Origin: a virus
DNA length: 58,742 bases
Direction: 5' to 3' (one strand)
IMG/VR virus record: IMGVR_UViG_3300036975_000060
Each line of letters begins with the position of its first letter. The first letter of the stretch is position 1. The notes under the pieces were generated by a model, which was given only the letters and a program-made list of their open reading frames with translations, did not search any database and was not told where the DNA came from. Below, piece by piece: positions 18,105-56,737 of the stretch. A program made the position numbers and the translations under genes.

Positions 18105-18224
18105 CTCCACTTTAAAGTTATGGGGGGGCGTGGCATGCCGGGAGCGAGGGCGAGGAAGATTTTAGGAGTGGCTCCACACCAGGAGGTAGTTCCCGGCATG
18201 TCATTAAAAACAACGGAGGTCGTT

Positions 18225-29913: not shown

Positions 29914-30906
29914 ATGAAAGGATCGAAGATCATGATTATTAGAAACAAAAACTGGAAAACAACCTGGAGAACAACAATAGCAGCCCTGCTCGTTCTACTG
30001 TTTTGGACGGTACTTTTCAGCATATGGATCAATGCCGCGCAGGCCTGCCAGCCGAACGATCCAACCTGCACTTGTGAATCTGATTCATCAGCCGAGGCCA
30101 ATTCTAGCGCAGTAGCCGGAGCAATAGGTATTGGGTATTCAACAGCTGAAATTATCGAGGGAGATACGATTTTAAGCTCAGGAGACAACGTTTTTAACGC
30201 CGGTGACACGCAACTGAGTCAGGGCGATATGAACAACGCATCGGAATCAAAGTCCAGTGTGGGCGAAATTTCGGCTCTTGGCGGAACATCTCATACGGGT
30301 GATAATAACATCTCTATGGAATCTATTTACGATCCCGGAATAATGATGCCTGAGATAGCTCCATCCGAAATTCAGATTGGGAGCACACGGAAACCTGTTG
30401 CGGCCATTGGTCCGTTTGTAGGCGTAAGTAATTCAAACTATCGACATAGAACGTCATGGATAGCTGGGATAAGCGCTCATATTCCGCTTTACGATAAGAA
30501 GGTCCCTGATATTGCACTGCAAAGAGAGAGTGACAAGATTGATATGGAAAAGACATATCTTGAGACTCAGAATACCTACTTAACGGATAAAAATGCCCGT
30601 TTACAGGCCAAACATGATGAAGAAATGAAGATCATGGAAAGAGAACATCAGGCAAGGTTTGTTAAGCTATGCACTTCTACCCATTTAACCCATGAAAAGA
30701 GAGAAGGTTCCAACCTATTTGATGAGCTTTGGAATTTCTGCTATGGAATAGAGCATATAAATAACAGGACTACAAACGATATAGTAGGCCGGCATAATCA
30801 GGAGATTGACGGCAAGCCAAACCCAAATCAATTTATGCCACACAGCAAGGCATATCATGATGATGTCCCGGTTATGATTGATGCCGAGATGAAAACCAAA
30901 GATTAA
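29914..30906 (+). CDS. Secreted or membrane-anchored hypothetical protein
   Basis: N-terminal hydrophobic segment TIAALLVLLFWTVLFSIWINAAQA. A Ser/Gly/Asp-rich region follows, then a charged helical region. Confidence 0.55.
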   Translation: MKGSKIMIIRNKNWKTTWRTTIAALLVLLFWTVLFSIWINAAQACQPNDPTCTCESDSSAEANSSAVAGAIGIGYSTAEIIEGDTILSSGDNVFNAGDTQLSQGDMNNASESKSSVGEISALGGTSHTGDNNISMESIYDPGIMMPEIAPSEIQIGSTRKPVAAIGPFVGVSNSNYRHRTSWIAGISAHIPLYDKKVPDIALQRESDKIDMEKTYLETQNTYLTDKNARLQAKHDEEMKIMEREHQARFVKLCTSTHLTHEKREGSNLFDELWNFCYGIEHINNRTTNDIVGRHNQEIDGKPNPNQFMPHSKAYHDDVPVMIDAEMKTKD

Positions 30907-32653: not shown

Positions 32654-32818
32654 TTATTTTTCAGCACTTTTCGAGAACATTTTGGGTATCTGAGCAAAAA
32701 CTTCTTTCAGGCCGTCAATAAGAATGTCATCCCATTTCCACTTTGTAAGCTTTACTATCTTCTCTGCTATCATAAAACCAAGTAGGAAATATTCCCAATG
32801 AGCTATTATGTATTCCAT
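32654..32818 (-). CDS. Small membrane protein (holin-like candidate)
   Basis: 54 aa from an ATG preceded by GGAGGA. One TM helix (WEYFLLGFMIAEKIV) is followed by KLTKWKWDDIL, which resembles the TP(T)KxDD motif of small phage membrane proteins. Confidence 0.4.
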   Translation of the reverse strand: MEYIIAHWEYFLLGFMIAEKIVKLTKWKWDDILIDGLKEVFAQIPKMFSKSAEK

Positions 32819-32822
32819 GATT

Positions 32823-33227
32823 CTATCCTCCAAAAGCCTTTTTAACATTAGTCATAAACTGACGTGCCCGTCTCAACGCTCCGTCGTCAAAATCGATAAG
32901 CCCGGTATCAACATCTATCCGGTAAGACATCAGAACACCTTTGACAACACCCCTGATAACCGGGTCTTTTATCATATCTGGTAACAGCTGGAGACCGTTA
33001 TTGAAATACGCCTCAAACATATCGTCATCAGCTTTCAGGGCTATATCACAGTATCTTACAATAGACTGCGCCTTTTCCGGGTATTTGGCTTTAATAACCT
33101 CTACAGCGGTTGTTATGGCGACCTTATCGATCGATGCCAGTTCATTATCACCTACTACCTGGAACTTAATTCCGAAACACCCGCTAAGTAAAAATAATGT
33201 TAATACGATTAATGCTAATTTTTTCAT
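32823..33227 (-). CDS. Lipoprotein
   Basis: MKKLALIVLTLFLLSGCFG carries the lipobox LSGC. Confidence 0.65.
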   Translation of the reverse strand: MKKLALIVLTLFLLSGCFGIKFQVVGDNELASIDKVAITTAVEVIKAKYPEKAQSIVRYCDIALKADDDMFEAYFNNGLQLLPDMIKDPVIRGVVKGVLMSYRIDVDTGLIDFDDGALRRARQFMTNVKKAFGG

Positions 33228-33346
33228 GATATTTTCCTTTCATTCTTTAAAAAGATATATGATTTTACTAAACCGACCCTGATTTCGTGTATTGCGTTTT
33301 GCAAGTGATTATTCATATAATAATAAATAACTTTTGATTTTTTCAT
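33224..33346 (-). CDS. Small ORF (40 aa)
   Basis: AAGGAGAAAGCC lies upstream of the ATG. The stop overlaps the lipoprotein start as ATGA. Confidence 0.3.
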   Translation of the reverse strand: MKKSKVIYYYMNNHLQNAIHEIRVGLVKSYIFLKNERKIS

Positions 33347-33358
33347 GGCTTTCTCCTT

Positions 33359-33496
33359 TTAAGGTTTAGCAATTCTTAATATAGACCCTTTGTAATATCC
33401 CACTAAATAATATTCCCATGACCCATGGTTCCAATGCCCTTCAAAAATCCAAGGAATATACCCTTTCCCCCGTAATACTTTAAGATATTTATGCAC
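33359..33496 (-). CDS. Small ORF (45 aa, GTG start)
   Basis: AAGGAGAAACAAA-GTG. Trp/Tyr/Gly-rich peptide. Confidence 0.25.
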   Translation of the reverse strand: MHKYLKVLRGKGYIPWIFEGHWNHGSWEYYLVGYYKGSILRIAKP

Positions 33497-33518
33497 TTTG
33501 TTTCTCCTTTAATATTGG

Positions 33519-33683
33519 TTAAGGGGCCTCATCTCCTTCCGGGCTTACAGTTGCCGGATGAGTATCCTGTGTTAATTTTTCTAAGCATTCTTGACAGATA
33601 TAGTCACCCATAAAGTCAAAAGCTCCTATCTGCCCGCAAGTGTCACATACTGCATGTTCATCAAAAGGGATTGTTTTATCCAT
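33519..33683 (-). CDS. Small zinc-ribbon protein (54 aa)
   Basis: MDKTIPFDEHAVCDTCGQ...YICQEC. Its start abuts the upstream stop (TAAATG). Confidence 0.4.
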   Translation of the reverse strand: MDKTIPFDEHAVCDTCGQIGAFDFMGDYICQECLEKLTQDTHPATVSPEGDEAP

Positions 33684-33860
33684 TTAATCACCGATTATTA
33701 TTTTCCTTTTTATATCCCTTAATTTTTCCCTATTATCCATTTCTATTTCAAGGGCAAGCACCCTTAATAATCTGTCAAACCTCTCTCTTTTACGCCTTGT
33801 TTTTCCTACAGGATTGTAATTCCTTATGACATCCCGGTAATCATTGAGTGTTTTTGACAT
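33684..33860 (-). CDS. Small basic protein (58 aa)
   Basis: MSKTLNDYRDVIRNYNPVGKTRRKRERF... Overlaps the end of the upstream ORF. Confidence 0.35.
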   Translation of the reverse strand: MSKTLNDYRDVIRNYNPVGKTRRKRERFDRLLRVLALEIEMDNREKLRDIKRKIIIGD

Positions 33861-34029
33861 CTTTATTACACTCTGTAAATATTTTATCTATTTTTTTAAT
33901 CCAGATCATTGCTAATTCACCATTCTGGTCTGATATTTGTTTTGATTTTCGCAATTGTCGGATAAGATCTTTAAGACATAATACGGCATTTCTACCTTCA
34001 TGCTGTTCTTCGTTGGTTAATGTAGACAT
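33841..34029 (-). CDS. Hypothetical protein
   Basis: 62-aa ORF with a GGAGG RBS. Confidence 0.45.
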   Translation of the reverse strand: MSTLTNEEQHEGRNAVLCLKDLIRQLRKSKQISDQNGELAMIWIKKIDKIFTECNKDVKNTQ

Positions 34030-34143
34030 GATAACCTCCGTTAAAGAGGTGGGGAGGTAGTTTGACCTACCTCCCAGTTTGAAAGGATAATCAATCTACT
34101 CACATACAATCATACTATAATTTATTCAGGTTATAATTGCAAG

Positions 34144-34512
34144 TTATTTGTCTTCCTCTTGCTCTTTGTCCTTTTTCTTTTTATCAGTATCCAGTTTAGT
34201 TAATACCTGCTCTAAAAGATGAATTGTTTTGTTTTGAGCTGTTAATATATTCTTTGTTCTCTCGTCAAGAACACCAATATCTTTAACATTTTGATTAACT
34301 TGTTCTTTAACTTTTGGGAAATCTTTGGCTTGAACTCGAATATCAGAAAACCAAATAATTGTCCCAATAATTGATAAGAGTACCAGGCCTGCGATAGTCG
34401 CTAATGCCGTCCATGACACTTTACTCTTAATCCCGTACTTACCCCAAACAGCTTCTTTAATTTCTTTCATGTCTGCACATTCCTCTCCGTTGTCTATGGT
34501 ACATCTTGCCAT
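34144..34512 (-). CDS. Type II membrane protein with coiled-coil ectodomain (i-spanin or holin-like candidate)
   Basis: TM helix WTALATIAGLVLLSIIGTIIWF, followed by a helical region and a Lys/Glu/Asp tail. Confidence 0.5.
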   Translation of the reverse strand: MARCTIDNGEECADMKEIKEAVWGKYGIKSKVSWTALATIAGLVLLSIIGTIIWFSDIRVQAKDFPKVKEQVNQNVKDIGVLDERTKNILTAQNKTIHLLEQVLTKLDTDKKKKDKEQEEDK

Positions 34513-34532: not shown

Positions 34533-36266
34533 TTATTGAGTTGTCCAGCTTCCTGCCTGATTTGCTGTTGTACTGCCCGATTGGTTAAAAGTTGTTGACC
34601 CTGTTCCGGTTGTTACACCTGAGTTATTAGTTATTTCTTGATCTGCAAAAGTTTCTAAAGCATTGGGTGTCTCTGCCATATCAGTTACGTCGCCTGTCTC
34701 AGAATCGTAGTCCAGAGTTATTGCCCCTTCTGTACCGGAATTATAAACAGTTCTGTTTGTAGAAAATCTTATGGTACTTGTTTCATCTCCTGAGCTATAA
34801 GTAAGAGTGATTGCAGGGTCTTCATCTTCAACGCTAAATCCTGCAAAACTGTTGCTTGATGTTACTGCTTCTGAAAAAACAATATCCAAATAACTTCCTG
34901 TTGCATCTACTGTTGCACTTGATACTGTTGGGGCGGTTGTGTCTATAGCATCGACCCCAACCTGGGAAACATCGGCTCCAGCCAACGCCCCGCTTCGACC
35001 TGACGTATTACTCACTTCAAAATCAGCAATTGTATTTAAATTTCCTGACCCATTTGCAAAACTTGGATCAGCCACTACAGACCCCTCACCGGGATTGCCA
35101 CTACCGATTAATTCACCCGATGATTGCCATGCCGACAAATTGGCATACTGTGCATCAGTACCATAAACCCTCAAAGAAAAATCTGGATTATTTTGCCAGA
35201 TATTATGATCAACAGTTCCCAATGTAGTATTATCATACACCGTCTGGAAGCTAGGGCTGTTGCCTGTAACAATAATATTATTATATATATCGGCTGATTG
35301 GACACTTCTTAAATTTATAATCGTAGCGTTTAACATATAAAAAGTATTTGAATATATTTGCAAGTTATCAGCGTAGTCTCCACCACCATCAGAATAATAC
35401 CACACACCATCTGTTGCTGTGGATGAAACAACCAGATTATTATAAAAAGAATTACCATCACAATCAAAACCATCTAAGTAACCCTCAAAATACGGAGCAC
35501 CCCCTCCGCTAAAAAAATTATTGTATATGCTTGTGTTATTATTGTATGATTTAGATGATATGGGGTGTTCTTCACAATTTTCAAAATTATTTCCGCTTAT
35601 ATCAGCAGCCTCTATATGATACAATTTCAAACAGGCATAATTATCATGCCCTCCTGTTCCCCCTGGGAAGGGACCAACTGTATTACTTTGAAATTTGCAA
35701 TAATCACAATCCTCCATACGATTAAGATCATAGTTATCATCATACGGTATTGTAGTGCTTCCACCTTCAATAGTACAATTTTTAACAATTATACCTGTCG
35801 CATGTGCAAGATCACTATCTGACCCCAACCAGAAACCCGCATTTTCATCGGCCTCAGTAGTTGTAATTGTTATACCGTCAAATGTAATATAATCCTGGCT
35901 TCCACTTCCTAATATCCATCCTGTCCAAGCATCATTACCCCAATTAACCTGAAATGTAGGTGTTTCACCCGAATAATTTTGAAATATTATTGGATGACCA
36001 TCAGTGCCTGAATTAGTCGGTTCATAAACAGCGTGGTAAGGTTCTGCTGGATTACCTGTATAGCTATAAGTCCCACCCCTGAGATATACGATATCGTCAG
36101 CTTCAGCGTTCGCCATAGCTGTAGATATAGAACATGGGGTGCTAATATTTGTACTATTGGCCCATGTATCGGTTCCATCTGAGGCAACATAGTGAGTTGC
36201 TCCATAGACCACTTGGGCAAAGATAAGTATTATGGAAAATACTATTATTTTTATTATGGTATGCAT
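34533..36266 (-). CDS. Beta-helix (pectate-lyase fold) tailspike/depolymerase-like protein with a signal-peptide-like N-terminus
   Basis: MHTIIKIIVFSIILIFAQVVYG|ATHYVASDGTDTW... has the typical start of the pectate-lyase fold. Many N-x-x Asn/Gly-rich coils follow. C-terminal region is Thr/Ser-rich. Confidence 0.65.
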   Translation of the reverse strand: MHTIIKIIVFSIILIFAQVVYGATHYVASDGTDTWANSTNISTPCSISTAMANAEADDIVYLRGGTYSYTGNPAEPYHAVYEPTNSGTDGHPIIFQNYSGETPTFQVNWGNDAWTGWILGSGSQDYITFDGITITTTEADENAGFWLGSDSDLAHATGIIVKNCTIEGGSTTIPYDDNYDLNRMEDCDYCKFQSNTVGPFPGGTGGHDNYACLKLYHIEAADISGNNFENCEEHPISSKSYNNNTSIYNNFFSGGGAPYFEGYLDGFDCDGNSFYNNLVVSSTATDGVWYYSDGGGDYADNLQIYSNTFYMLNATIINLRSVQSADIYNNIIVTGNSPSFQTVYDNTTLGTVDHNIWQNNPDFSLRVYGTDAQYANLSAWQSSGELIGSGNPGEGSVVADPSFANGSGNLNTIADFEVSNTSGRSGALAGADVSQVGVDAIDTTAPTVSSATVDATGSYLDIVFSEAVTSSNSFAGFSVEDEDPAITLTYSSGDETSTIRFSTNRTVYNSGTEGAITLDYDSETGDVTDMAETPNALETFADQEITNNSGVTTGTGSTTFNQSGSTTANQAGSWTTQ

Positions 36267-37009
36267 AGATCATCTACCCATATTGTACCTGCACTACCCG
36301 TACCTGCGTTAAATTCAAGATAAACCCTGTCAGGAGATAAGCCAGAAGATTGCATAGTTAAATTGCTCGCTGCGGGACTGTCATTTATTTCTATATCGAA
36401 TGTATCAGCAGTTAAATCACTTATAATAGTTATTTTAGTCCATGTATCCGCTGATATATCAATAGTCGTATCAGTCCATGAAGAACCATTATGATAGAAT
36501 AAACTTCCATCCACAGTGCTTACATATATTGTTGCTGTAATAGTGCTGTTCCAACTAAAATCCCCATCTGTTAAAGCTATGAACTCAATATAAGAATCGC
36601 TATTATCATTCCATCTAAAATAAAATGATAGATCATAAGTGCCATTTTGTTCTGCATAAGTCCTGTAAACTCTTAATTCCTGTGTCGCTGGTGATATTAG
36701 TAATCTTGCTGAGGCTGATCCGCCATTAGCTTGGGCAGTATCAACAACAAAATAGTTAGTTGAAACAGGAGCTTCGGTCCATGCAGCGGTTATAGCACTT
36801 AATTCAGTTTCGTCTATCTCTCCTTCAAAGTCAGCGGAAAATGTTCCACAACCCCCTCCCCCACTCACCGTCTGACCATCAACAGTATCAATGCCTGTCT
36901 GTCCGTCCCAAGTATCTATTCCTGTCTGGCCATCGAATGTATCTACATCAGCATAGAGTATAAATGGAAACAGTAATATTACCAGTAAAGCAAATAGTTT
37001 CTTTTTCAT
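36254..37009 (-). CDS. Lectin/LamG-like jelly-roll protein with a signal-peptide-like N-terminus
   Basis: Start at ATG 37009 (GGTGGAG RBS). MKKKLFALLVILLFPFILYA, then DGQTGIDT repeats, a GGGG linker and a beta-rich domain ending IWVDDLCIP. Confidence 0.5.
   Translation of the reverse strand: MKKKLFALLVILLFPFILYADVDTFDGQTGIDTWDGQTGIDTVDGQTVSGGGGCGTFSADFEGEIDETELSAITAAWTEAPVSTNYFVVDTAQANGGSASARLLISPATQELRVYRTYAEQNGTYDLSFYFRWNDNSDSYIEFIALTDGDFSWNSTITATIYVSTVDGSLFYHNGSSWTDTTIDISADTWTKITIISDLTADTFDIEINDSPAASNLTMQSSGLSPDRVYLEFNAGTGSAGTIWVDDLCIP
36872..36949. repeat. 27-nt tandem repeat (about 3 copies) encoding (T)GIDTxDGQ
   Basis: The units are ctgaccatcaacagtatcaatgcctgt / ctgtccgtcccaagtatctattcctgt / ctggccatcgaatgtatctacatc. 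Confidence 0.8.
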
Positions 37010-37013
37010 ATTA

Positions 37014-38993
37014 TTACTCCACCAGTAAGTAATGGTTGTCAAAATCGAAGTAAATCTCTGAATCAGATATAGCCCTGCCTATAACCTGAACACAATCATT
37101 AGATGTAGAGGGGGCAGTTTGAGTTATAGTTCCTGCTGTTTCTCCAAGATATACAGGGCCACCAACCGTAAGACCTGTCCAATCCTCATCTCTTACAACA
37201 CCTTTAACCAAAATAATAGCAGCGTCAGTGTCATCCCCTGCATTAACTGCAAGCCCAAAAGCCGGATACAAACCTGTACCCTGAGTGGCATTGGCATCGT
37301 CTACCTTCCCATCAGATTGTAAAAATACCGTACTGATTGCCGTAACGGTAGCCCCAAAATTTATACCGGTTATTACTTCTCCATTGTATTCACCATCATC
37401 CATGCTATCAGGAGCAGCATCAAAGCGAATAGAGTTGTTATCACTTAATGTCATATATCCTGAGTCGTTAAATGATAAAGTATCAATAGTAGGTAAACTT
37501 AAGTTTGCAGTTATTATAACATCAGGCAAAGCTGACCCTGTGTTATTTTGTATTACCAAAGCATTTGTAAGTCCACCTGAACCATATGCCTGAAAGATGT
37601 AGTTATGGTCGTCTGTTCCTAATGCTGGCCTAAATACAAATCCATTGGTTAAAAGCATAGAAGTAGTAAAAGTTGGAGAAGTTCCAAATACAGATACACC
37701 TGATCCTGTTTCATCCGACAGTGCGCCTGCCAGACCTGCTGAATTGGTTAATGTCGTCTGGAATGCTGAAGCTTCATTTCCATCCAACAAATCAGCATTA
37801 AGGTTACTTACAAGAGTTGTGGAAGATACGCCGAATGGGGCTGTCCCAGTAGCAATATCAGATATAAACCTTGTACCTTGTATATAATACGCTCCAACGT
37901 CCCAATTAGCAGTCAAGGGCACGGTTCCATCTGCAAGCAGATCTCCTCCGCCACCGGCTCCTCCATCGTCATCAACTTCTTTCCATGAATTTTCAGCTAT
38001 ACAAATATAAAGACTTCCGTTTGTGTCGGCATCAGTGTCAACATACATTTCACCCACTGTACAGGTCCCCGGTAAAGATGTACTTGAGTTTGTTTGAAGG
38101 GTGTCCCCTGCCGTATAATATCCCAACGCGGATTTAGCCGCTGCGGCATTGGCCCATGACCACATAGTTGACATATACGCACCCTCATCAGTAACCAAAG
38201 AAAACAAATTCGCACTGGAGGGGGTAGTTAAAAATGTCTGGACTCCTGAGGCTTCACCTGTTAATGCAGAAAAGAAGTTTGCAATTGTTGGTGTACCAAT
38301 CCACGTTCCTACATTTGCTCCGGGTGTAATTCCTGCCCATGTACCTAAAACAGCGCTATAAGCCTGATAGTCTGTCCCGGCTTCCATATTGTAAGCAGTC
38401 TTAAACTCTGCTTCATTATATCCTGCTGCACCGTTGGCTGTAAGATAAAGTATGTCTCCATTTGCTGCATCGGCATCATCAATTTCTAATAGGTTATCGT
38501 TAGCAATACCAACTGTCTGTAAAGGAAGATAAAGCAAATCAGCAGCGGTTTGATCAAGGTAAGCCGCCGCCGTGTTCTCTGCTTCTGTCCAAAGGTCAGT
38601 AGAGGTAGGCCAATATGATAAACTTATATCAGGTATATCCGCAGCAACCAAAGCCCTGAAAGCAGGCACAGCATCACCGCCGGCGTCGGGTCCGGCTAGA
38701 ATTGTATTTGCAGATTGAGTGTCAAATCCCAATTCCTGTGTTGACAAGGAAAGCAATTCGTCAGCATTGGCATCAAGAGTAACAGCATCATGTCCACCTG
38801 CAAGAGTCTCTATTTTATCCCTTACAGCGTTTTGTGATGGAGCTTTATCTGTTACGCCATCCCATGTTGTTGCATTATAGGCTGTATCATCGACCGATCC
38901 AGTTCCGCCACCTCCCCCTGACCATGTATTGTCCTGAGCTATAGCAAAAGGAGTTATTAAAAATACAATTAAATAAAAGATTAATTTTTTCAT
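37014..38993 (-). CDS. Tail fibre-like protein with a signal-peptide-like N-terminus
   Basis: MKKLIFYLIVFLITPFAIA|QD, with poly-Gly linkers. Thr/Ala/Gly-rich composition. Internal motif CTVGEMYVD...SLYICIAENSWKEV is followed by a GGAGGGG linker. Confidence 0.6.
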   Translation of the reverse strand: MKKLIFYLIVFLITPFAIAQDNTWSGGGGGTGSVDDTAYNATTWDGVTDKAPSQNAVRDKIETLAGGHDAVTLDANADELLSLSTQELGFDTQSANTILAGPDAGGDAVPAFRALVAADIPDISLSYWPTSTDLWTEAENTAAAYLDQTAADLLYLPLQTVGIANDNLLEIDDADAANGDILYLTANGAAGYNEAEFKTAYNMEAGTDYQAYSAVLGTWAGITPGANVGTWIGTPTIANFFSALTGEASGVQTFLTTPSSANLFSLVTDEGAYMSTMWSWANAAAAKSALGYYTAGDTLQTNSSTSLPGTCTVGEMYVDTDADTNGSLYICIAENSWKEVDDDGGAGGGGDLLADGTVPLTANWDVGAYYIQGTRFISDIATGTAPFGVSSTTLVSNLNADLLDGNEASAFQTTLTNSAGLAGALSDETGSGVSVFGTSPTFTTSMLLTNGFVFRPALGTDDHNYIFQAYGSGGLTNALVIQNNTGSALPDVIITANLSLPTIDTLSFNDSGYMTLSDNNSIRFDAAPDSMDDGEYNGEVITGINFGATVTAISTVFLQSDGKVDDANATQGTGLYPAFGLAVNAGDDTDAAIILVKGVVRDEDWTGLTVGGPVYLGETAGTITQTAPSTSNDCVQVIGRAISDSEIYFDFDNHYLLVE

Positions 38994-39004
38994 TTTCGAT
39001 CTCC

Positions 39005-39589
39005 CTATAAAATTACTTCAAAAAGCAATTCCAATCCCCATGTTCTGCCGTTTGTATTGGTGTAATTATAAATTATGCCATCTGTGGGGCCTAGAATATC
39101 AGAATACAATGTTCTATCTATGCCGCCGCTCGTTACTCCATTTAAGTTTACAGTACCCAATCCTGTATCATATTTGGAATCAGTGGCATGATCGATAGCC
39201 TGGGTCAAGTTTTCATCTGCACCAGTGTCGCTTAATTTAAGCCGTGTTTGAAGGGGCCTATATCCCCTTACAACTGTTTTAAGATTATTTGGAAAATCAA
39301 AATAAAGAGCATATGTTTCGGTTCCGGCAGGCGTTTCAGCTACATAAGTGGCGGTTATATTTACGGTGTTGGCATCAGCCACGCTTTCTATTTTATGCAC
39401 TCCGTTATAGTTTGTTGTCCCAGCTATTATGATATAAGATCCGGCAGTGAGCCCATGGCCCGTTATTACTATACCTACGGTTCCATCACCATTATCAACA
39501 ACAGCAGAGTTGGCTAAAACCCCGTTTAATGCCCCTGTTCCGTTGTATCGTACGGTTTCAACTACTTGATTGTTGGCTAATACCTTCAT
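39005..39589 (-). CDS. Structural (fibre-associated) protein
   Basis: 194-aa beta-rich ORF within the fibre cluster, with a GGAGG RBS. Confidence 0.45.
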   Translation of the reverse strand: MKVLANNQVVETVRYNGTGALNGVLANSAVVDNGDGTVGIVITGHGLTAGSYIIIAGTTNYNGVHKIESVADANTVNITATYVAETPAGTETYALYFDFPNNLKTVVRGYRPLQTRLKLSDTGADENLTQAIDHATDSKYDTGLGTVNLNGVTSGGIDRTLYSDILGPTDGIIYNYTNTNGRTWGLELLFEVIL

Positions 39590-39623
39590 TTTAAAATCCT
39601 CCTTAAAATATTATATGTAATTA

Positions 39624-40844
39624 TTACGGCCATGTTGATATCGCCGCCCTTTTCCATGTATCTGTAGCTATGCAAATATAAATATAACTAGAATCCCATT
39701 CGATATCACCTGTGATACACGTATCTGACGCAGACGAAGGTGTCCCGGTAGGAATATTAAGGCCGGTATTTGACGTTATTTTGCCACCGAAATAGTTAGG
39801 AGAACTACCCGCTTGATAAAAACCATAATCAAGGTAACTTCCATTTTCAGTAAGGTGAATGCCATAAGCTGTCCCCCCAGGATCGGCATCCATATTAGTC
39901 ACTACTGCTGCACCAAAGACATTCCCATCTACAGTAGCGCCTGATTCTAGTATTGCTGAGGAAATTGAACCAAATACATGACCAAAACCGTAAGTATCCT
40001 CGACATTCCCATCTGCGCGTATCGCTGCTCCAGATCTGCCACCAACTACATAATATAATACTGTTCCATCTACAAGATCTGCGGATGAATACAACCCATA
40101 AAGAACCCCTAATTCACCGGCAGACTGATTAAGACTAGCGGTAAAATGTCCTGCTCTAAGAAGATCATCGCTATCAGTAGCACCAGCGGTTTTTGTTATA
40201 CTAACGTCAATGCCCCTAAATGAATCAGCGGTATCAAGCGTTGTATCTGAAAGAGTTAATGAGTGGTGGGTTACATCATCAGAATCCCCAAGCCCAAGTG
40301 AAGTTCGTAGGGTCGCCCCGCTCTCTTCCTGATATGTTCCTACGCCGGTTCCTACAAGAACACCTCCATCAACGGTAAAGTCTGAGCTGTCTACGTCTCC
40401 GCCGCCACCTCCGCAGGCAGTAAAAATAAATTCACCGGGGTCATCGTCCCACATTAAACATTCATCTGCATCTGGATCAGCGGGAAACCCAGATATATCA
40501 AAAAGATCATCAGTGTCTTTGTCAAAATAATTTTGAGAAGAATGATCTCCCCATCCATAGGCTGTATTCCAGTTTGCAGGGTTTACAGCCTCACTATTTA
40601 TAGTTGAAAGGTTTGGCAATGCATCTATCGCTGATTCAATGGTGCTTTCGGTAATGGCGTCAATATTATCAACTCCATTGAGATTGCTATCGCCCTGCAT
40701 ATCTATTGTAATTACATCGACTGCTGTAGCGGTTCTTCCCTCTTCAACATAGTCACCATCGACAGCTTTTGCATAGAGAGGTATTAAAAGAGTGGAAAGG
40801 GCAAACCCCATAAAAAACCAGTATATTAATTTTAATCTTTTCAT
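39624..40844 (-). CDS. Tail fibre-like protein with a signal-peptide-like N-terminus
   Basis: MKRLKLIYWFFMGFALSTLLIPLYAKA|VDG. Its C-terminus CITGDIEWDSSYIYICIATDTWKRA shares a motif with the 659-aa fibre. Confidence 0.55.
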   Translation of the reverse strand: MKRLKLIYWFFMGFALSTLLIPLYAKAVDGDYVEEGRTATAVDVITIDMQGDSNLNGVDNIDAITESTIESAIDALPNLSTINSEAVNPANWNTAYGWGDHSSQNYFDKDTDDLFDISGFPADPDADECLMWDDDPGEFIFTACGGGGGDVDSSDFTVDGGVLVGTGVGTYQEESGATLRTSLGLGDSDDVTHHSLTLSDTTLDTADSFRGIDVSITKTAGATDSDDLLRAGHFTASLNQSAGELGVLYGLYSSADLVDGTVLYYVVGGRSGAAIRADGNVEDTYGFGHVFGSISSAILESGATVDGNVFGAAVVTNMDADPGGTAYGIHLTENGSYLDYGFYQAGSSPNYFGGKITSNTGLNIPTGTPSSASDTCITGDIEWDSSYIYICIATDTWKRAAISTWP

Positions 40845-40845
40845 G

Positions 40846-41376
40846 TTAACTGCCCGCGTTATATTTGGTTAATGGATACCAGACATTTTGAGAAACACAG
40901 AGGAAAAGTATTGAATCCCCTATATTATCCATTGAAAAATCGTTCCCCATAACAAGGCTTGCTCCATTTTTACAAACAACAGTCCTTGATCCACTTTCCG
41001 CATGTATCAAAAGAAGTTCTCCGGCGCTTCCCCCGTTGATCGTATCAAGATCGTCGCTGGCCGCGTCTCCCTCAGTATCAACAGTATGATGTCTGAAATA
41101 ATTCTGGCCTGTAACGGTTATTACTCCCCCTGATATGGTCTTTTCAGTTGCGGTGCCAAAGCCGACAGCAGAGGTTATGCCAGTTGATACAGCGGTAATA
41201 ATATCTACGTTTTCAGCAAGTAAAGTCAAAAGCTCCCGATATAAAATGGCCCTGTCCATGTATTCACTATTGGAATTCTTAATGCCTCTTATCCCTAGTA
41301 ATATTTCGAGTGTCTCTTTTACTGCCTCTTCAAAAGGAGTGCCAGGAGGAGGTATCGGCGGAAATATTGTTGCCAT
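40846..41376 (-). CDS. Structural protein
   Basis: 176-aa ORF whose start overlaps the giant gene's stop. Confidence 0.45.
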   Translation of the reverse strand: MATIFPPIPPPGTPFEEAVKETLEILLGIRGIKNSNSEYMDRAILYRELLTLLAENVDIITAVSTGITSAVGFGTATEKTISGGVITVTGQNYFRHHTVDTEGDAASDDLDTINGGSAGELLLIHAESGSRTVVCKNGASLVMGNDFSMDNIGDSILFLCVSQNVWYPLTKYNAGS

Positions 41377-44300
41377 TATTTGTTTTTCCTTAATTCTCTA
41401 TATTTTTTACGCATAACAGCATTGCTATCATAAGTTGCTGTATTTATTCCAACTATATCAAGGAAATCTCCGACTATTTCTTCAACTGGAACTTTTTCGA
41501 TATCTCCCTTTGATCTCTGATATGTTTCCACGAAATTTTGTACACCTATTGGTGTAGCCAAATTATAAGATGTGTTTCCGATAGTTGGCTTTTCATAATT
41601 AAAGTTTCTGCCTCTTGTTATATCTATCGCGGTCTTAGTAACAGGAGCGGATTTATTAACCATGAAATCGACAATTACATCAAACAGCGTTTTCGATCCA
41701 TATCGCCCTGAATTCAAGTCCGTAACTTTTTGTGTTTTTGTACTTTTTGTTTTAAAGGTAGCGGCCCTTGCCAAGAGGGTTATTATAGATCCCTTTCCAC
41801 CTGTCATGTCAAATCTTGTATTGCCTATCTTTACTTTCATAAAGTCTGAGCTTCTTGGGTCCCATTCAACAGTATCTTTGTTTCCAAATAATTCGCCTAA
41901 ACCATCAATAATGGCCGCTACAAGAGCTGTCAGACCAACTATTTTGACAAGATTTCTTCTTGCCTGCTGCCTGGCGAAAGGAGTCTTAAGCCCTGCTCCC
42001 CCGAAATGAGCGGTTAAAACGTTTATATTCCCCCAAAGCATTTTAGGCGCCCAGAATATAAGCCGCAATGGTCCTCCCGATCCCATTTTCCCCAAGTCGC
42101 CTCTTGCGGTAACAGAGTTAATAAGCTTTCCGGTTTCCTGTACCCACTCCTTTGAAGATGTATCCACGCCCTGCATATCTGCTATTTTCTTAAGCATATC
42201 ATAGGTGTTTATTCTCATCCTGACACCGGAATTTAGAAAAGCATTTTCAGACGCCTTAAATGCCCTTCCAAGATAAGGTATCCTTTCAGGTATAGAGGTG
42301 GGAAATTGTTCTTCGCTTTTCGGGATAAGTTTTGCTGTATCATAATCACCATTTATAAAATTGGGACGTGAATAAGCATCTGCCATAACCGCATCCCTGA
42401 CTATATTTCCGCCATGCTTACTTGCCAATGTTTTATAGATATCAACAAACGACTTCTTTGCAGCCGGACCCCATACAGTCGGATGCGTAAGAAGAGTATT
42501 TAGTCCCTGCCTGCCAAGAAAGCTATTATCTAATGAGGCCATCATTGAAATAGAAAGGTCAGATATGGTGCGTATAATATCCATTGTGGATTTTGTAAAG
42601 GCTTGAGCTTTGTTATCTTTCCATACTGTTTTCACTTCCTGCCATTCATCCTTGAGCATAGTTTTTATGGTTCTGTCAACGCCTTTCAAGTGATCTATAT
42701 ATCTCAAAAATGCTACTTTTGCTGCTCCGTATTTAAACCTGTCTCCCCCGGATTCCATTTCCTGCCTTGACCTTGCCATTTCCTGGGAAAGCTCAATCAG
42801 CCTATCAGCTTCTTCTCGGGTTACAACTCCGGCATTTTCAACGGCAGCATTGAAAGCTTGCTTTATGGTGTCTCGTTCGGCCTTCAGTTTTCTCCCTTCA
42901 GCATCAAGCATGGTTTCTTTGCGCGTATCTTTCTGCAGGTCCAAATTTTCCAGCTTGTCACCGAACTTCTTAATTTCATTATTTAGCCTGGTTTTAAGCC
43001 TCTGTAAAGCAACCTCTTCCGGTCTCTTTTTTGGCTTTGCAAGATCTCTTAATTCTTTGACCTTGGCTTTCAGTTCATCTCTCTGAGCCCTTAATCGGGT
43101 CAATTCTTCAGACTGAGTAGGTGTTCTTTTTGGCTTCGGAGTTAGATCATTCTCGTTTATCCTGCGGGTATACTCTTCAATGGATTTATTGACTGCATTA
43201 ACAGCAACCTTTATTCTCTGCTCTTCAGTCATTTCAGTTTTGCCGAACAGTTCATCGAATTGCTTTTTAAGATCATCCCTACGCTTCCTGAGCTTTTCGG
43301 CTTCGACATCGTATTTCAGACCGGTTTTCTTTTTAAGGATCTTCTGACCTGTTTCAATCTGATATTCAAGATCTTTTATCTGATTTTGGAGTCGGGTCTT
43401 TACGGAATCAAGAGCAGACTTGAGTTGCTTTTCAGGATCAACGGTTTCGATACCAAGTTCCTTTTTCATCTCTTCTACTTTTTTAATCAAACGGCGTTCT
43501 TCGTCCGTTGGAGTCCTGCGCTCTATACCGGTTTTTAAAGGAGCCATGCCTCTTTGCATGTCCTCAAGTTTTGCTACCTGTTGCATCTGACCTTTCAGGC
43601 CCCTCAGCTTTACAAGCACTTCGTCCTTACTTAACGGCTTGAACTTTCCATACCCTGATATGGCGTCCATGGTTTCCCGAAGCGTTATACCCTGAACAAT
43701 GTCTTTAATTACGTTGTGAACTTCTCTCACAAGAGCGTTTCTTTCGGTTACGCCCTGGGTAATGAAATACTTTGCAAGTTCTTGGATATCGGTTGATACA
43801 TCTGAATATTCTTTTCCTTGATCAATAGATGTCTGGATTTTCTCTTTCAGAACTTTGGAATTGGTCTTTTTATAAAGCCTCTTTGGTGACTTTTTTATTA
43901 ATTTATCAACCGATGTTCCTGCGTTCTCATTATCGGTTTTAGTTTCATACTCCTTAAGCTTTTTTTCAGCATCAGACAGCTTCTTTTTGAGCTCTCTTAC
44001 TTTCTCAATAGAGACTACCTTTTTGCCACGTTTTTTATTTTTCTCCTTGCGGTCCTTCTCTACGTCCTGCATGGCATTTACAGGATCTTCCATGATAGAA
44101 GAATCAGCAGCTTTTATCTCCTGACCATATTCGCTCAGTTGTGTAGGCACCCTTGATTCTGTGCCAAGATCATATAATAAATCGGAATCACCTTCGTTTA
44201 ATGCCCTGAGTTTTACGGCCTCATATACGGGGGCGACTCTTAAATTACCGGAAGGAGACTCTTCACCCATGGCAATACGTTTGGCCTTTTCGTAATCGGA

Positions 44301-47300
44301 ATTTATAAGGGCTTCGGCCTTTTCAGCCTGATCTTTCATAAATCCTTCTTTGGTCTTATACTCAGCCAGATCCCCGAAGTCTTCTGAAAGTTTTGCCTCT
44401 ATGGTATCGGCTTCAGTTCTTTTGGCAAGCTTGCTTTCCTTGGTAAATTCTCCGTGTGGGTTTTTGGAGAGATCGTCCAGCGCCTTTTCCTTTGAGAAAG
44501 ATATCCTTGGATCTGTTTTGTCGAAGGTTCCACGGTTTTCCACTGACTTAATCTGAGCAAACTCCGCACTCCTTCTCAATACATTCCGGATCTCAGCATC
44601 GGTAAGCCTCAATTTTATCCCGGCAGAGCGTAAGGCTTGTTTGATAAAAGAAATTATCCGGTCAAGCAAAGTGGCTTTCGGTTCATTGACTGCCATGTGA
44701 GCGATAACTTCCCTGGCAAAGGTTGTCTGGTCTTCAGCGCTTTTTAAATCAGGATCAAGCTTATAAGTCCATATTATATTTTTTCCAATTTCGCTATCCC
44801 GGTAATCCTTGGCAACCATATCAAAGAGTTTACGCCTATTCTCTTTGGTCAGAACTGCATCAACTCCCCTGTGGCCTATTCCTTCATGGATCAAAGTGTC
44901 CACTATGGAGGCCTCACCCTTCATGTTTTCGGCTACAATAGTGATCGAATCGGTCTGGGAATCATAGTAGGCAAATATCTTATCGTTCGTGCGCTCCTGG
45001 CCGGCGCTTTCAAATATGGAATCAGGTATCTCAGCCTGAGACTGGATGACGTTTATATTGCCGATATTCGGGAAGGCTTTCTTTACCCGGTTTACTATAT
45101 TATTCACTCCATTGGTTGAGAGAATTGACTTTCCTTTGGGGGCTTGGATGGAGGAACTATCAGACCTAAGAAAAGACGCATCTTTTTCAGGATAATATAC
45201 AACCTCATCCCCAGCTAATATTCCATCATATCCTTTTTCTCTTACAAAAATACCGGGATCGGGATACTCTTTATTGAATTCACGAATATTTTTATACTCG
45301 CTATTTTTTAAAATCCAATCTATTAAAGCTTGGGGCGCTCCTCCATAGGCCTGTAATACAAGGGGATTTCTTGGATATACATCTTCAGGATTTAATTCTT
45401 CAACTTCTCCATACATTTTTGCAAAATTTTTATCAGGAGTAGAATAAATACCCTGTCCCATTGAATAAATACCAGTTCCCTTCCCTTCTTTTGTTCCTCT
45501 ATAAAGCCTTTTAGGTGGTTTTACTTTAAACTTACTCCCTTCTTTCATAAAGGCCGGTTTGTTCACCTCCGGCATAGACCGGATCTGATCTTTATTGACA
45601 ACCTTCTTTTTTCCATCAGGAAAGGTCACTTCTACTTTTCCGGTAACAGAGGTCTTATTCTTGCCAGACTTGAATTCCCGCATAGAGACAAACGGCTTTA
45701 CCCCGCCCTTGTCGAGTCTGACCATTCCGGGGGCGTTGGGCTTGGTTTCTTCCTGCGTTGATTGTGGGGCAGGTTTGGGGGTTTCTGCCTCTGTTTCTTC
45801 AGGTTTAAGGTATTCGAGTAGTTTATTATATCTTTTAAGTTCTCTTTCGGTAAATTCGACCTGTTCAACTTGTCTTTTTATAGTGTTGTAGGCTTTATCT
45901 TTTCCACCATAAAGGATTATTGCTTTTTCAGCGTCCTGTTCAATTGTTGGAGATCCAGAATCATCAGTTATTCTGTTTTTATATGTGGTTGATAATTGCT
46001 TAGCGTTCTTTTTAAACTCAAGGAGAGCTTTTTTATTATTAACTATAGTGAAAACACCGTCTCCGGGAATGTCAATTTTAACCCATGTTGGAGCGCCTGT
46101 ATTATCCTCACCATCATTAAGTAATCTCTGTGCATCAATACCCATTTCATCGGCATATGCTTGGATGCTATTCATATTTTTACTTGTTAGTGGGCCATTT
46201 GGGGCTATTTCTACAGCCTTGTTTATCTCTGCAATAAGATATGTTTTTTGATCTTTAAGTGATAGTTTCTTATCTTGATTTTTCGTTAAATCAGCTTTTA
46301 TAATCTGTTGATCATTTTTTTCAGATGTTACTATTTTCTCTGCCTTTACTTCCTGATTGGGCTGAGAAGGTTCTTTCTTAACCTCTTCCTTTGTGGGAGT
46401 GGCTGCTTTTGCATCTTTGTAAACTTTATCAATAGCCCTGATTTCAGAGTCAATAATCCTATCAACAAGAGGAGGGAATATCCCATCTTCCAAGTTATTA
46501 GGAAAAGCCTTTTTATGTTTAGCTTCAACAAGTTTCTTTTTATTATAATTAGGATTAGCAGATGGACCTTTTTCAGTTTGTTCCCATTCCTCCATAGAAA
46601 CATTAAATTGACCTACTTTTTTGCGACCACTTCTATTTTCAACGCGGATAACGCCACTATGATAAGATGCTCTTTGGGAATTATCCCTTACAGATTTATC
46701 AGTATGAGCTATTTTATTAAGGTTTACCTCACCGGCATTTGTTCCTGTATCAACAACAGGCTTTTCCACTTCCTTAACCGGCTCGGTTTTTCCTCTATCT
46801 GAAACAACTATAGCAGGAAAAGATTTTTTACCTAATTTATGTAAGGCTACTAATCTATGAAGCCCCTCTAATATATATGGCTCCTGACCTTCCTCAGTAA
46901 CAATAATTAATGGGTTTATTTCGCCTGATTTTTTAATCTCATTTGCAAGTTTTTCGCTTCTTTCTATATCTTTTTTATCATAAAAAGTGTCTTCAGGATA
47001 CCATTCATCAATAGGTATTTCTCTAACACCTTCCATTATTTCATAATTATCTAATGTAGATGCAATTGATTCTATATTTGGGACTTCTTTCCTTACCTTC
47101 AATCCTTCAATTGTATTATTTTTGATCGGCTTAAATTCTTCCTTAACCGGTTCTGGCGTCACTTCTGGCGTTGATTTTCCTTTCAATCTCTCAAGGTCTT
47201 TAATTAACTGATCACTTGCCCCTGCTTCAGCCTTTTTCGCTACGGAAGGCATGAGAGTTTCATCGATAGAATATTTATCGGGAGACTGTTTCAATGTTCC

Positions 47301-50507: not shown

Positions 50508-51539
50508 CTATGATCTCGTAGCCAATTGTTCATCTAGCTTTTTTCCTCTATCCCCATAGATGGAAGTATATATACCCTCAGATGTTCCGGCGCCTTCTCC
50601 CGAACGCCCTTCATTTATGCCAAGTAATGTCAATCCAGCACTTCCATATTGTGATCCTATATTTCCGACAGCATTGGCAACAGCGATAGCCGTGTCAGCT
50701 TTTGCTTTTTCAGCGGATGTCATTGCCCCTGCTGCATTGGTTTGTAATCCAAGCAAATTAGTTTTCTGCCCCATTAAATCAGAGGCTATTTTTGCCGTAA
50801 TGGTCGGATCTACTGCATGCAGTGCCTCTAAATTTAGTCCTGTTACTCTATTTTTTTCCGCGGTTCGTGCTTCATTCATGGCCCTTACTTTGTCCCGGGC
50901 TTCGTTTAAAGTTGATTTCTTTGTAAGTGCCCCGAATTTTCCGGATGTTGGGTCAACTCCGTAACTCATTGCATTAATTGCGGCTTCTTCCCGCGAAAGT
51001 TCGCTTTGTGCGGCCACATCAGCAGCGGCCCTTCCTGAGACACCGGCATAATCAGGCTGCGCTAAATTGGTTATATTTTTAACAAGGCCTCTCCGGGTGT
51101 CAATATCTTCCATGGTAGAATCTAATGCCCTCTGAGTATAACCGCCGTACTGTTCATCAAATGAAGATATCTGATTTTGGATATTACTCATAAGATCGCT
51201 GTAGATACCGGTAAGGGGTGATTCCCCGGAAAAGGTTCCTTCCAGTGTTTTCGTTAATAAACTGAGTGTTTCCTGATTTATTTCGCCCCACTTTGACAAA
51301 AACTCATTAGTCATATTCGATGATGCAGCGGAAGAAGATCCCGATTTTGTGGACAGGCCTTTTGATGCATTGTATACGTCTCTTGCTTTATTTCCCGATG
51401 AGCCCATTTGCATATCATAAGCCCTATCTGCTGCTTGAGCGGCTTCCCAGGTGTCATATCTTCGACCATCTTTGCCATAAAATATGGTTATTGGATTAGC
51501 ACCGCCTTGTGATAGCCATTCTTGTTTTTTGGTTGCCAT
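50508..51539 (-). CDS. Internal virion protein candidate
   Basis: 343-aa Ala/Ser/Gly-rich protein. Call rests on position. Confidence 0.4.
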   Translation of the reverse strand: MATKKQEWLSQGGANPITIFYGKDGRRYDTWEAAQAADRAYDMQMGSSGNKARDVYNASKGLSTKSGSSSAASSNMTNEFLSKWGEINQETLSLLTKTLEGTFSGESPLTGIYSDLMSNIQNQISSFDEQYGGYTQRALDSTMEDIDTRRGLVKNITNLAQPDYAGVSGRAAADVAAQSELSREEAAINAMSYGVDPTSGKFGALTKKSTLNEARDKVRAMNEARTAEKNRVTGLNLEALHAVDPTITAKIASDLMGQKTNLLGLQTNAAGAMTSAEKAKADTAIAVANAVGNIGSQYGSAGLTLLGINEGRSGEGAGTSEGIYTSIYGDRGKKLDEQLATRS

Positions 51540-51542
51540 GCT

Positions 51543-52055
51543 TTATGCCTCCTGATCTTCTTGCATTAATTCTTCCATCGAATCGGCCATATCAAACCGT
51601 CTTACCGTAACATTTCCTTCAATGATTATTTCCCATGCTCGGGCGCGTATACCACCTTTAATTAGAAATGGTTTATTGTTGGCATATATGTTTTTTTGAT
51701 GAAGAAGAGTATCATCACCATAAATACTTACTGTTAAATTATAATCCCCTGAATAATCCCCTACCGTGGGGACTGTTTCAAGGTCATCTCCGTTAATTTC
51801 AATATCGTACCCTATAACCGGATTCCATATAATTCCAGCCGATATCCGTTCATTATTGCGTTTTATTGCTCTTTTCCTGGCTTCTACCTGCTCAAAATAT
51901 GTCTGACGGTCTCCTGTATCAGCTATTACCCTGGCACAATAAAATGTCTTTCTTTTGGGTAACAATACACGGCCTGACCAAAAAGTTAAATCATTCGGGT
52001 AAGGCTGTGATGTGTCGCCTTCCCATTCGTATATTTTATTTCGGTAGAGAGTCAT
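51543..52055 (-). CDS. Tail structural protein
   Basis: 170-aa ORF adjacent to the large tail protein. Call rests on position only. Confidence 0.35.
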   Translation of the reverse strand: MTLYRNKIYEWEGDTSQPYPNDLTFWSGRVLLPKRKTFYCARVIADTGDRQTYFEQVEARKRAIKRNNERISAGIIWNPVIGYDIEINGDDLETVPTVGDYSGDYNLTVSIYGDDTLLHQKNIYANNKPFLIKGGIRARAWEIIIEGNVTVRRFDMADSMEELMQEDQEA

Positions 52056-52059
52056 TTAA

Positions 52060-56085: not shown

Positions 56086-56304
56086 TTATATTGGGGTTTT
56101 TCTTTTTAATACCTCATCCCATTCAAATAACCATTGCATACCTTCTGGAACTGGAAATCTATCTTTTATAACCTTAAAGCATTCCCTAACTTCATTTTCT
56201 GTTCTAAAATATTTTTCTATTATTAGTTGCCTCACCTTCACTCCAAATGAAGCTTCTTTAATGGCCTGCCAATAAAATCTACATATCATTCTATTACGAT
56301 CCAC
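56086..56304 (-). CDS. Hypothetical protein (insertion in the tail module)
   Basis: 72-aa ORF. Confidence 0.45.
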   Translation of the reverse strand: MDRNRMICRFYWQAIKEASFGVKVRQLIIEKYFRTENEVRECFKVIKDRFPVPEGMQWLFEWDEVLKRKTPI

Positions 56305-56737
56305 CTGTCATCACCTTCCATGTCCCGTCACAATCCTTGTGCCAGGTCTCGTCAACCGTGTTAAATACCTCTTCACCAAAATGAGCGGCTGTAGTTCCAA
56401 GAACTTCCGGATCTCCGGCCACTTCTCGCTCAGTGCCTTTCTGCAGGAAGGTTGTCAGTATAGCAGCGTTCAGCACACATTTTACAGTGGCATCCGTCGT
56501 AAAACTGTAAGAATCAGTGCGAGTTACGGTCAGCGTATCACTGCTTCTCACCGTACAGGTCATATAAGCTTTCTGACTTCCTTCGACTACCTGAACGACG
56601 AAACATTCAGTCCCTTCTGTTGGATCAGGGAATAATGATCCATCTCCGGAGGTAACAGGTAGCGACGTATCACTCCCGCCCATGGCTGAGGCCAGTTTCG
56701 ATTCTGCGTTATTCGTGAAGATGTATTTTAGGGCCAT
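56294..56737 (-). CDS. Stand-alone copy of the tail-fibre N-terminal module
   Basis: LTVTRTDS...VLNAAILTTFLQKGTEREVAGDP...FGEEVFNTVDETWHKDCDGTWKVM aligns with LTVSRGQD...RINAALLTAMIQKEAPRQVAYDP...YRGEKVYRTSGQWFKNVSGTVWQAL of the 469-aa protein. Confidence 0.55.
   Translation of the reverse strand: MALKYIFTNNAESKLASAMGGSDTSLPVTSGDGSLFPDPTEGTECFVVQVVEGSQKAYMTCTVRSSDTLTVTRTDSYSFTTDATVKCVLNAAILTTFLQKGTEREVAGDPEVLGTTAAHFGEEVFNTVDETWHKDCDGTWKVMTGGS

Follow-up and report, generated by a model that had tools for sequence, protein, structure and literature searches.

Why should a tailed phage carry export signals on fibre-like, lectin-like and beta-helix proteins? The question is raised by IMG/VR record IMGVR_UViG_3300036975_000060, whose 58,742 nucleotides (the window) make up a near-complete 58.7 kb genome. 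It comes from a wetland metagenome and belongs to a phage that is uncultured and podovirus-like. Four tightly packed late open reading frames (ORFs) on the minus strand, 577, 252, 659 and 406 amino acids long and referred to here as g577, g252, g659 and g406, had been described from the letters alone (the sequence-only reading) as starting with signal-peptide-like N-termini. The N-termini quoted for them and the coordinates 34533–40844 are exact. The cytoplasm is the assumed site of folding and assembly for the receptor-binding proteins of phages, and the exported proteins known from phages are mostly small lipoproteins, endolysins and isolated enzymes. We found that the four genes belong to a cassette that recurs across many uncultured phages, which is the main point and one that the sequence-only reading had missed. 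On balance we favour the explanation that the cassette is a Sec-exported accessory module, predicted to bind and probably to cut polysaccharide of the host envelope. The four genes are:

34533–36266, minus strand: g577, 577 amino acids; predicted signal at residues 1–22 (36201–36266), beta-helix at about 24–440, low-confidence C-terminal region at 442–577
36254–37012, minus strand: g252, 252 amino acids from the ATG; predicted signal at residues 1–20 (36953–37012), repeats (36854–36952), Gly linker, jelly roll at 55–252
37014–38993, minus strand: g659, 659 amino acids; predicted signal at residues 1–19 (38937–38993), Cys/Asp module at 303–345 (37959–38087), neck-fibre-like C-terminal domain
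39624–40844, minus strand: g406, 406 amino acids; predicted signal at residues 1–27 (40764–40844), body homologous to podophage tail fibres, Cys pairs 129/144 and 376/391

Signal peptides of the four proteins

Signals were called with a rule-based scan of our own and by comparison with homologues; in related loci a simple rule set was applied to our own ORF calls. For the four proteins the scan confirmed a basic n-region, a hydrophobic core and a small-residue site, with cores of 11–20 residues where 15–20 had been noted from the letters. In the order g577, g252, g659 and g406, the net charge of the n-region is +1, +3, +2 and +3, the uncharged core is 11, 16, 16 and 20 residues long and the mean hydropathy of the core is 3.37, 2.82, 2.62 and 1.74. 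The g406 core, with 1.74 over 20 residues, is the weakest and lies just under our own threshold. The predicted cleavage sites are VYG↓A (g577), LYA↓D (g252), AIA↓Q (g659) and AKA↓V (g406), giving V/G, L/A, A/A and A/A as -3/-1 residues, with a proline at -5 or -6 in three of the four. The mature starts are acidic, and a lipobox is present in none of the four proteins. As the sequence-only reading had stated, the neighbouring ORFs at 39005–39589 (g194) and 40846–41376 (g176) have no hydrophobic N-terminus.

A strict signal test was passed by 5 of the 71 main-strand ORFs. Four of these five lie inside six consecutive genes and comprise three of the cassette genes and a lipoprotein gene at 32823–33227 (permutation p = 0.003). 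The start codons were examined for all four genes, since true starts downstream of the hydrophobic segment had been named as an observation that would speak against signals. None of the genes has a usable start codon at such a position. For g659 there is no alternative start in the first 70 codons, and its ATG is preceded by GGAG. The ATG of g252 is also preceded by GGAG, and the ORF list contains a 262-amino-acid TTG extension of this gene to 37042. The g406 gene begins one base past the stop codon of the gene before it, and the beginning of g577 lies over the last bases of g252. With a start further downstream, g577 and g252 would lose conserved residues of the mature protein.

The N-termini of g252 and g659 had been called clearly paralogous. 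Their alignment score of 50 is within the top 0.35% of unrelated signal pairs, yet scores of 46 and 52 are reached between one of the two and other signals of the set, the 52 coming from the signal of a g659 homologue, and paralogy is therefore not established. The proposed comparison with homologues gave a two-sided result: across the families the signal is conserved as a property, while the sequence itself varies freely. Taken together, we consider it very probable, judging from the sequences, that the four N-termini are genuine Sec signals of the cleavable type.

Folds, families and cysteine patterns of the mature proteins

About 19 of 25 g577 homologues have a hydrophobic N-terminus, unrelated in sequence and variable in length, that runs up to an AxA-type site, immediately followed by the conserved mature start A↓T[HY]YVS.SGS..WANSTNISTPCS. 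Three signal-less relatives (P0137, P0142 and P0143) begin at this conserved mature start. A variable signal, a conserved mature start and signal-less relatives that begin there argue for a cleaved export signal and not for a structural docking helix.

The AlphaFold2 (AF2) model of g577 has a predicted local distance difference test score (pLDDT) of 74 and is confident over most of residues 24–440. The top Foldseek match is the pectate lyase Pel9A (1ru4, E = 3e-6), and the next matches are PL6 alginate and chondroitin lyases, a rhamnogalacturonan lyase, mannuronan epimerases and the Vibrio matrix lyase RbmB; phage tailspikes rank lower in the list. In sequence searches g577 itself reached PF13229 at an E value of 0.025, under the Pfam cut-off. 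Homologues at 45–57% identity carry precomputed PF22842 (Pel9A-like beta-helix), and the family profile matches a parallel beta-helix protein in the PDB at 1e-15 and a PL6 lyase at 1e-9. No particle-binding domain is located ahead of the helix. According to its model g577 is a Pel9A/PL6-like right-handed beta-helix. A genome scan with the g577 family confirmed 337 relatives, of which 80 loci were kept; these represent many phyla of bacteria and a few genomes of archaea. Five loci were inspected and four of them are in clearly cellular contexts. The bacterial homologue P0131 is encoded inside an exopolysaccharide locus, together with exosortase EpsH/EpsI, Wzy, a flippase and glycosyltransferases.

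The AF2 model of g252 (pLDDT 86) shows a concanavalin/LamG-like jelly roll. Foldseek matches include the BT_1020 sialidase, Cip1, clostridial neurotoxin binding domains and calreticulin (E = 6e-8 to 1e-5, probability 1.0), as well as viral LamG-like proteins; a Pfam sequence search gave nothing significant. The model indicates that g252 is a concanavalin A-like/LamG jelly-roll protein and a predicted lectin, so that both fold labels of the sequence-only reading, the jelly roll for g252 and the right-handed beta-helix for g577, hold. A signal is found in 60 of 81 g252 relatives. Right after the signal, residues 21–53 consist of three 9-residue repeats, DT[FWV]DGQT.. (DVDTFDGQTGIDTWDGQTGIDTVDGQTV), which are encoded by DNA repeated with a period of 27 in 2.8 copies and are modelled by AF2 as disordered. 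Dozens of unrelated small proteins have the same layout, with a signal, a repeat of the g252 type and 'GQTVASGG..C' followed by differing C-terminal domains of 63–307 amino acids. The repeat, which has no annotation, looks like a conserved docking or linker element. A scan of viral contigs with a degenerate DNA pattern of the repeat found nothing. The protein has exactly two cysteines, Cys55 and Cys250, on the first and last strands of the jelly roll, and the pair covaries in 24 family members, with both residues present in 12, neither in 11 and a single one in 1.

Among 120 homologues of g659, 43 are signal-bearing, and some (e.g., P0035) align right after the signal. The protein is fibre-like and modular. 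Residues 542–648 of g659 match the neck fibre protein gp82N of A-1(L) (PDB 8keg, E = 2e-5); gp82 is the neck fibre of cyanophage A-1(L) (PMC10966104). In a protein search of 50,697 GenBank phage records, g659 gave short motif matches only, to annotated distal tail fibres, and an exact look-up of g659 in an assembly index returned no record. The central part of g659 contains a 43-amino-acid module, SxTSLPGTCTVGExYxDTDADTNGSLYxCVATDTWKEVDDDG, with two invariant cysteines and a calcium-loop-like DTDADTNG, which at times occurs in tandem and has no Pfam or PHROG match. It is present in 11 of the 43 signal-bearing g659 homologues and in 0 of the 77 signal-less ones. In 35 metagenome loci with the module, nearly all carriers with a readable N-terminus are signal-bearing.

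A variant of this module was found with a hidden Markov model (HMM) of the module at residues 374–399 of g406 (39648–39725). The relatives of g406 are mostly signal-less tail fibres. One of them, P0147, is an annotated tail fibre (phrog_9729, E = 1e-247) and aligns with g406 from residue 41 of g406 (residue 97 of P0147) to both C-termini, so that the g406 signal occupies the place of the first 96 residues of P0147. The signal-less P0147 has the same C-terminal tip as g406 and one of the two cysteines only, the first cysteine of the 376/391 pair being absent. Residues 326–405 of g406 match the tail protein family phrog_17312 (2e-9). In P0231 a different signal precedes the same mature N-terminus as in g406 (59% identity over residues 19–74). 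On a second public contig (16 kb) the g406 protein was called from Met12 (P0146), which cuts off the basic n-region and shows how such signals vanish in annotation. A tail-fibre N-terminal profile from Pfam or PHROG matched none of the four cassette proteins. Since the periplasm is the main site of disulfide formation in bacteria, the cysteine patterns of g252, g659 and g406 fit export, without proving it.

Recurrence in uncultured phages and genome context

The order of a signal-bearing fibre, a signal-bearing small protein and a signal-bearing large protein was found at L001, L007, L009, L093, L094, L095, L101, L113/L116 and L126. The small protein is about 170–380 amino acids long and lectin-like where tested, and the large protein is about 450–1000 amino acids long. 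Several of the large proteins tested are beta-helix or pectate-lyase-like, the one of L126 has PKD domains, and four others gave no Pfam match. The cassette is often followed by genes for a holin-like protein, an endolysin (M15 or GH108) and a lipoprotein. Runs of three to six consecutive signal-bearing genes were found in L005 and L006, which have P22-like portal and coat genes, in L091 with an SU10-like portal, in the IMG/VR contig L090 and in the temperate phage L092. In total the signal-bearing cassette or runs are present on about 15 uncultured phage contigs. The run in L092 comprises six signal-bearing genes and is located near an integrase gene, with two small ORFs between. L092 also has a radical-SAM enzyme and an acetyltransferase-like gene within its structural module (4789–6227 and 15739–16899), and an ORF of L090 between the head genes and the signal-bearing run (7167–8432) resembles a family-2 glycosyltransferase by eye.

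The L005 gene at 6901–7317 and the L006 gene at 6881–7234 are 61% identical orthologues, of which one is signal-bearing and the other is called with a start close to the mature N-terminus; a signal was thus gained or lost between close relatives. Several of the related contigs also encode a signal-less large spike or fibre, for example a 2114-amino-acid LamG protein in L005, an 847-amino-acid beta-helix in L007 and a 381-amino-acid depolymerase-like protein in L092. The signal-bearing relatives belong to no PHROG family, and g577, g252 and a 469-amino-acid fibre of the window (see below) had no match in the 50,697 GenBank phage records. With g577 and g252 absent from these records and no PHROG family, the cassette is known only from uncultured phages. 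The terminase of the phage is at most 26% identical to any protein in the same records. Other features of the window are:

633–1562: capsid-like protein
6444–8615: portal or adaptor
9513–11171: large terminase
32823–33227, minus strand: predicted lipoprotein of 134 amino acids, lipobox LLSGC
34144–34512, minus strand: type II membrane protein with an internal transmembrane segment, Rz-like i-spanin candidate (phrog_739 Rz-like spanin, E = 1.5e-4), directly downstream of the cassette
39005–39589, minus strand: g194, signal-less gene between g406 and g659
40846–41376, minus strand: g176, signal-less gene between the gene for a giant, probably internal protein and g406
50508–54096: internal-virion and structural proteins
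54121–55530, minus strand: 469-amino-acid signal-less protein with a tail-fibre N-terminal domain (residues 17–110 match the tail fibre families phrog_8469 and phrog_30299, E = 5.6e-12)
56294–56737, minus strand: 147-amino-acid signal-less protein with the same tail-fibre N-terminal domain (phrog_8469, E = 1.4e-10)

The 469- and 147-amino-acid proteins are 29% identical over about 150 residues (BLASTP E = 2.6e-9), and three small ORFs lie between their genes. From its sequence the 469-amino-acid protein is likely a true virion fibre; the 147-amino-acid protein may be a truncated paralogue or an adaptor. A search for internal repeats among the late proteins of the phage found these two fibre N-terminal domains and the weak match between the Cys modules of g406 and g659, and nothing else. 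Pfam and PHROG searches with g194 gave no match. For g176, the resemblance to the Cys-module HMM is marginal at most, and no relatives were found in a scan of viral contigs. Between the internal-virion genes and the cassette, the ORF at 41376–49460 encodes a giant protein of 2694 amino acids that has zero cysteines and no significant match in a Pfam search; an HExxH motif (HEGIGH) was spotted by eye. It is probably an ejected internal protein.

The lipoprotein encoded at 32823–33227 is possibly an o-spanin or another envelope protein, and its sequence suggests a two-membrane (diderm) host. In the lysis region (32654–34512), which is incomplete as annotated, the genes for this lipoprotein and the Rz-like protein are about 900 bases apart, with a 62-amino-acid ORF between them, and no endolysin was recognised in the ORFs scanned. 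The second lipoprotein of the phage (169 amino acids, lipobox FMGC) is encoded upstream of the terminase genes at 12066–12575. At 29914–30906 there is a plus-strand gene for a 330-amino-acid protein with an N-terminal signal-anchor-like segment. A diderm host is presumed from the spanin-like protein and the predicted lipoproteins in the window and from the lipoproteins beside M15 endolysins in related contigs. The site of action before lysis would then be the periplasm. Attempts to assign the host more closely failed. The closest bacterial relatives of the beta-helix are scattered over many phyla (Thioalkalispiraceae, Anaerolinea, Nitrospirota, Elusimicrobia, Patescibacteria and others). A single tRNA-His gene (anticodon GTG) at 18031–18105, where the direction of transcription switches, has G-1 encoded opposite C73, and an encoded G-1 does not discriminate between hosts. 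Strong GGAGG sites argue against Bacteroidota and indicate nothing narrower.

Competing explanations and known systems

The sequence-only reading had left two possibilities: exported glycan-binding or depolymerase factors, and a hydrophobic helix used for tail attachment or membrane staging. The former fits the cleavable-type signals, the homologues that begin at the mature start, the secreted bacterial family of g577, the signal-linked Cys pairs and the presence of separate signal-less proteins with a tail-fibre N-terminal domain. The latter is disfavoured because a docking element should keep its sequence within a lineage, and the N-termini do not; it is the residues after the cleavage site that are conserved. 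We propose that late in infection the host Sec system would export the two fibre-like proteins, the small lectin-fold protein and the Pel9A/PL6-like beta-helix protein, with signal peptidase I cleaving their signals. In the fibre-like proteins the signal takes the place of the N-terminal domain of related tail fibres, which g406 shows directly. The exported proteins would be absent from the virion and would fold with disulfide bonds in the periplasm. There, and outside the cell after lysis, they would bind and probably cut exopolysaccharide, capsule or O-antigen. Lyases of exopolysaccharide operons such as AlgL act on nascent polymer in the periplasm. The phage would benefit from a receptor that is stripped or masked, from debris that no longer traps progeny, from the exclusion of competing phages and from an easier escape from the matrix.

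Several points weigh against this proposal. Many of the modules are common to real virion fibres, as seen in the neck-fibre-like C-terminus and the PHROG tail-protein matches. In T7-like phages the tail fibre gene is located between the internal-virion and lysis genes, and this is the position of the cassette. The cassette is packed in the late operon, where a scan for promoters and terminators gave no excess over shuffled sequence; an independent transcription unit (moron) was rejected on the same result. The g252 family combines a conserved N-terminal repeat with variable C-terminal domains, which is the usual layout of a docking part, and the 61% identical pair of L005 and L006, with and without signal, implies that the protein may work either way. 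In a diderm host Sec reaches the periplasm only, and action at the surface needs lysis or a further secretion step. Cleavage and export, moreover, are steps that we infer from sequence features.

An alternative that we regard as unlikely is that the proteins are virion parts that mature in the periplasm, where they would be exported to fold (with disulfides and perhaps bound calcium) and from where they would attach to finished particles at lysis as extra fibres or spikes. The modules common to real fibres, the T7-like fibre position of the cassette, the docking-like repeat and variable C-terminal domains of the g252 family, the Cys pairs tied to the presence of a signal and the fixed three-gene order, suggestive of a complex, are all in line with this possibility. 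The packing into the late operon and the L005 and L006 pair with and without signal also speak for it. However, no virion-docking domain was detected in the mature proteins with Pfam or PHROG, a tail-fibre N-terminal domain is already provided by other proteins of the phage, and the beta-helix most resembles monomeric lyases secreted by bacteria and lacks a particle-binding domain before the helix. Such a pathway would be new for tailed phages, and we know of no precedent for a tailed phage that adds periplasm-matured fibres at lysis. A related and more speculative generalization, to which we give little credence, is that tailed phages of environmental diderms use Sec as the route for a fibre, a lectin adaptor and a lyase spike, with disulfide formation and assembly of the complex in the periplasm, and that at lysis the complex joins particles or acts free. 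If true, this would constitute a second, extracytoplasmic assembly line for the host-recognition machinery of phages.

It is improbable that the proteins instead benefit the host as adhesins or matrix remodellers which alter the surface of the infected or lysogenic cell or its behaviour in biofilms. Temperate phages carry morons next to tail genes, the run of six signal-bearing genes in the temperate L092 ends near an integrase gene, and lectin and lyase folds, with RbmB among the structural matches, suit matrix remodelling. But no integrase was found in the phage ORFs examined, the cassette genes are inside the late operon, where the scan revealed neither a promoter nor a terminator signal belonging to them, and most carrier contigs look lytic, with the cassette adjoining lysis genes. 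We give still less weight to an uncleaved N-terminal helix that would stage cytoplasmically assembled fibres at the membrane or attach them to the tail. The single basic residue before the g577 core, the long and less hydrophobic core of g406 and the Met12 start called for P0146 could be explained in this way; the freely varying N-termini, the conservation of residues after the AxA site, the signal-less homologues that start there, the -3/-1 residues and prolines expected for signal peptidase I and the covarying Cys pairs, which point to extracytoplasmic folding, argue against it. That the hydrophobic N-termini are an artefact of misplaced starts or of chance is very hard to maintain. The database entry P0146, starting at Met12, is in its favour, and it is contradicted by the absence of another start in g659, by the conserved mature residues that g577 and g252 would lose, by the clustering of signals among consecutive genes and by the recurrence of the same feature in dozens of homologues and on about 15 independent contigs.

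If the proteins are exported accessory factors, as we favour, the cassette would represent a widespread way for phages to reshape the sugar coat of the host from within, with a bearing on superinfection exclusion, the loss of progeny to debris and escape from biofilms. For annotation the consequence is that homology would label such genes as tail fibres or depolymerases, which misleads host-range prediction and environmental enzyme searches. Two sequence families that lack annotation, the Cys/Asp module linked to signals and the repeat behind the signal, can from now on be used in searches. In a search of an open-access library we found no description of signal-bearing tail fibres or of secreted phage depolymerases arranged in this way, which is weak evidence of novelty.

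Several known systems resemble the cassette in part. AlgL, PslG and BcsZ are secreted or periplasmic lyases and hydrolases encoded in exopolysaccharide operons. Like the bacterial secreted or periplasmic lyases Pel9A (PL9), PL6 and RbmB of Vibrio cholerae, g577 combines a signal, a right-handed beta-helix and the corresponding sequence family, but the gene for this predicted lyase belongs to a tailed phage, where it lies in the late operon and in a fixed cassette with genes for fibre-like and lectin-fold proteins. With virion tailspikes and fibres (the P22 and HK620 tailspikes, the podophage fibres of phrog_9729 and gp82 of A-1(L)) the cassette has the beta-helix, fibre modules, C-terminal tips and a position beside the lysis genes in common. 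The N-terminal domain of known tailspikes and fibres anchors them to the particle. In those proteins this domain is signal-less, whereas the cassette proteins have a cleavable-type signal in its place and extra Cys pairs. Sec-dependent or signal-anchor-release (SAR) endolysins, such as Lys44 of Oenococcus phage fOg44 and Lyz of P1, are likewise late phage proteins that use the host Sec system via an N-terminal signal. They are, however, peptidoglycan hydrolases, and their SAR domains are weak and Gly/Ala-rich, in contrast to the strongly hydrophobic cores followed by AxA sites of the cassette.

Phage-encoded exported envelope proteins next to tail genes include T1 Cor and lambda Lom and Bor. 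T5 Llp is an exported envelope protein encoded beside receptor-binding genes that protects progeny or excludes rivals (PMC9586334), and receptor blocking to protect progeny has been discussed as a concept (bioRxiv 10.1101/2024.03.05.583538). Proteins of the Llp type resemble the cassette in being signal-bearing, encoded beside receptor-binding genes and active on the envelope of the infected cell. In the T5 Llp/T1 Cor type a single small lipoprotein or outer-membrane protein blocks a protein receptor, whereas the cassette encodes four large proteins of the soluble type (252–659 amino acids). The lipobox and small size of that class are absent from the cassette proteins, and the lipoproteins of the phage are encoded by separate genes (32823–33227 and 12066–12575). 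Certain tail-fibre-type proteins that also work off the particle have, to our knowledge, no signal peptide. They act while attached to the surface of bacteria (PMC7600539) and depend on the phage holin and lysin to reach the medium, and that review mentions no signal peptide. SignalP signals were found in 5% of 64,678 prophage carbohydrate-active enzymes (PMC13507307), so that phage enzymes which are exported and act on glycans are already a known class. Tail-fibre-type and infection-related proteins were left out of that survey by design, and it concerns single genes and not a conserved multi-gene cassette. Here a whole cassette of the fibre, lectin and lyase types, with export signals and signal-linked Cys pairs, recurs on unrelated podophage backbones from environmental samples.

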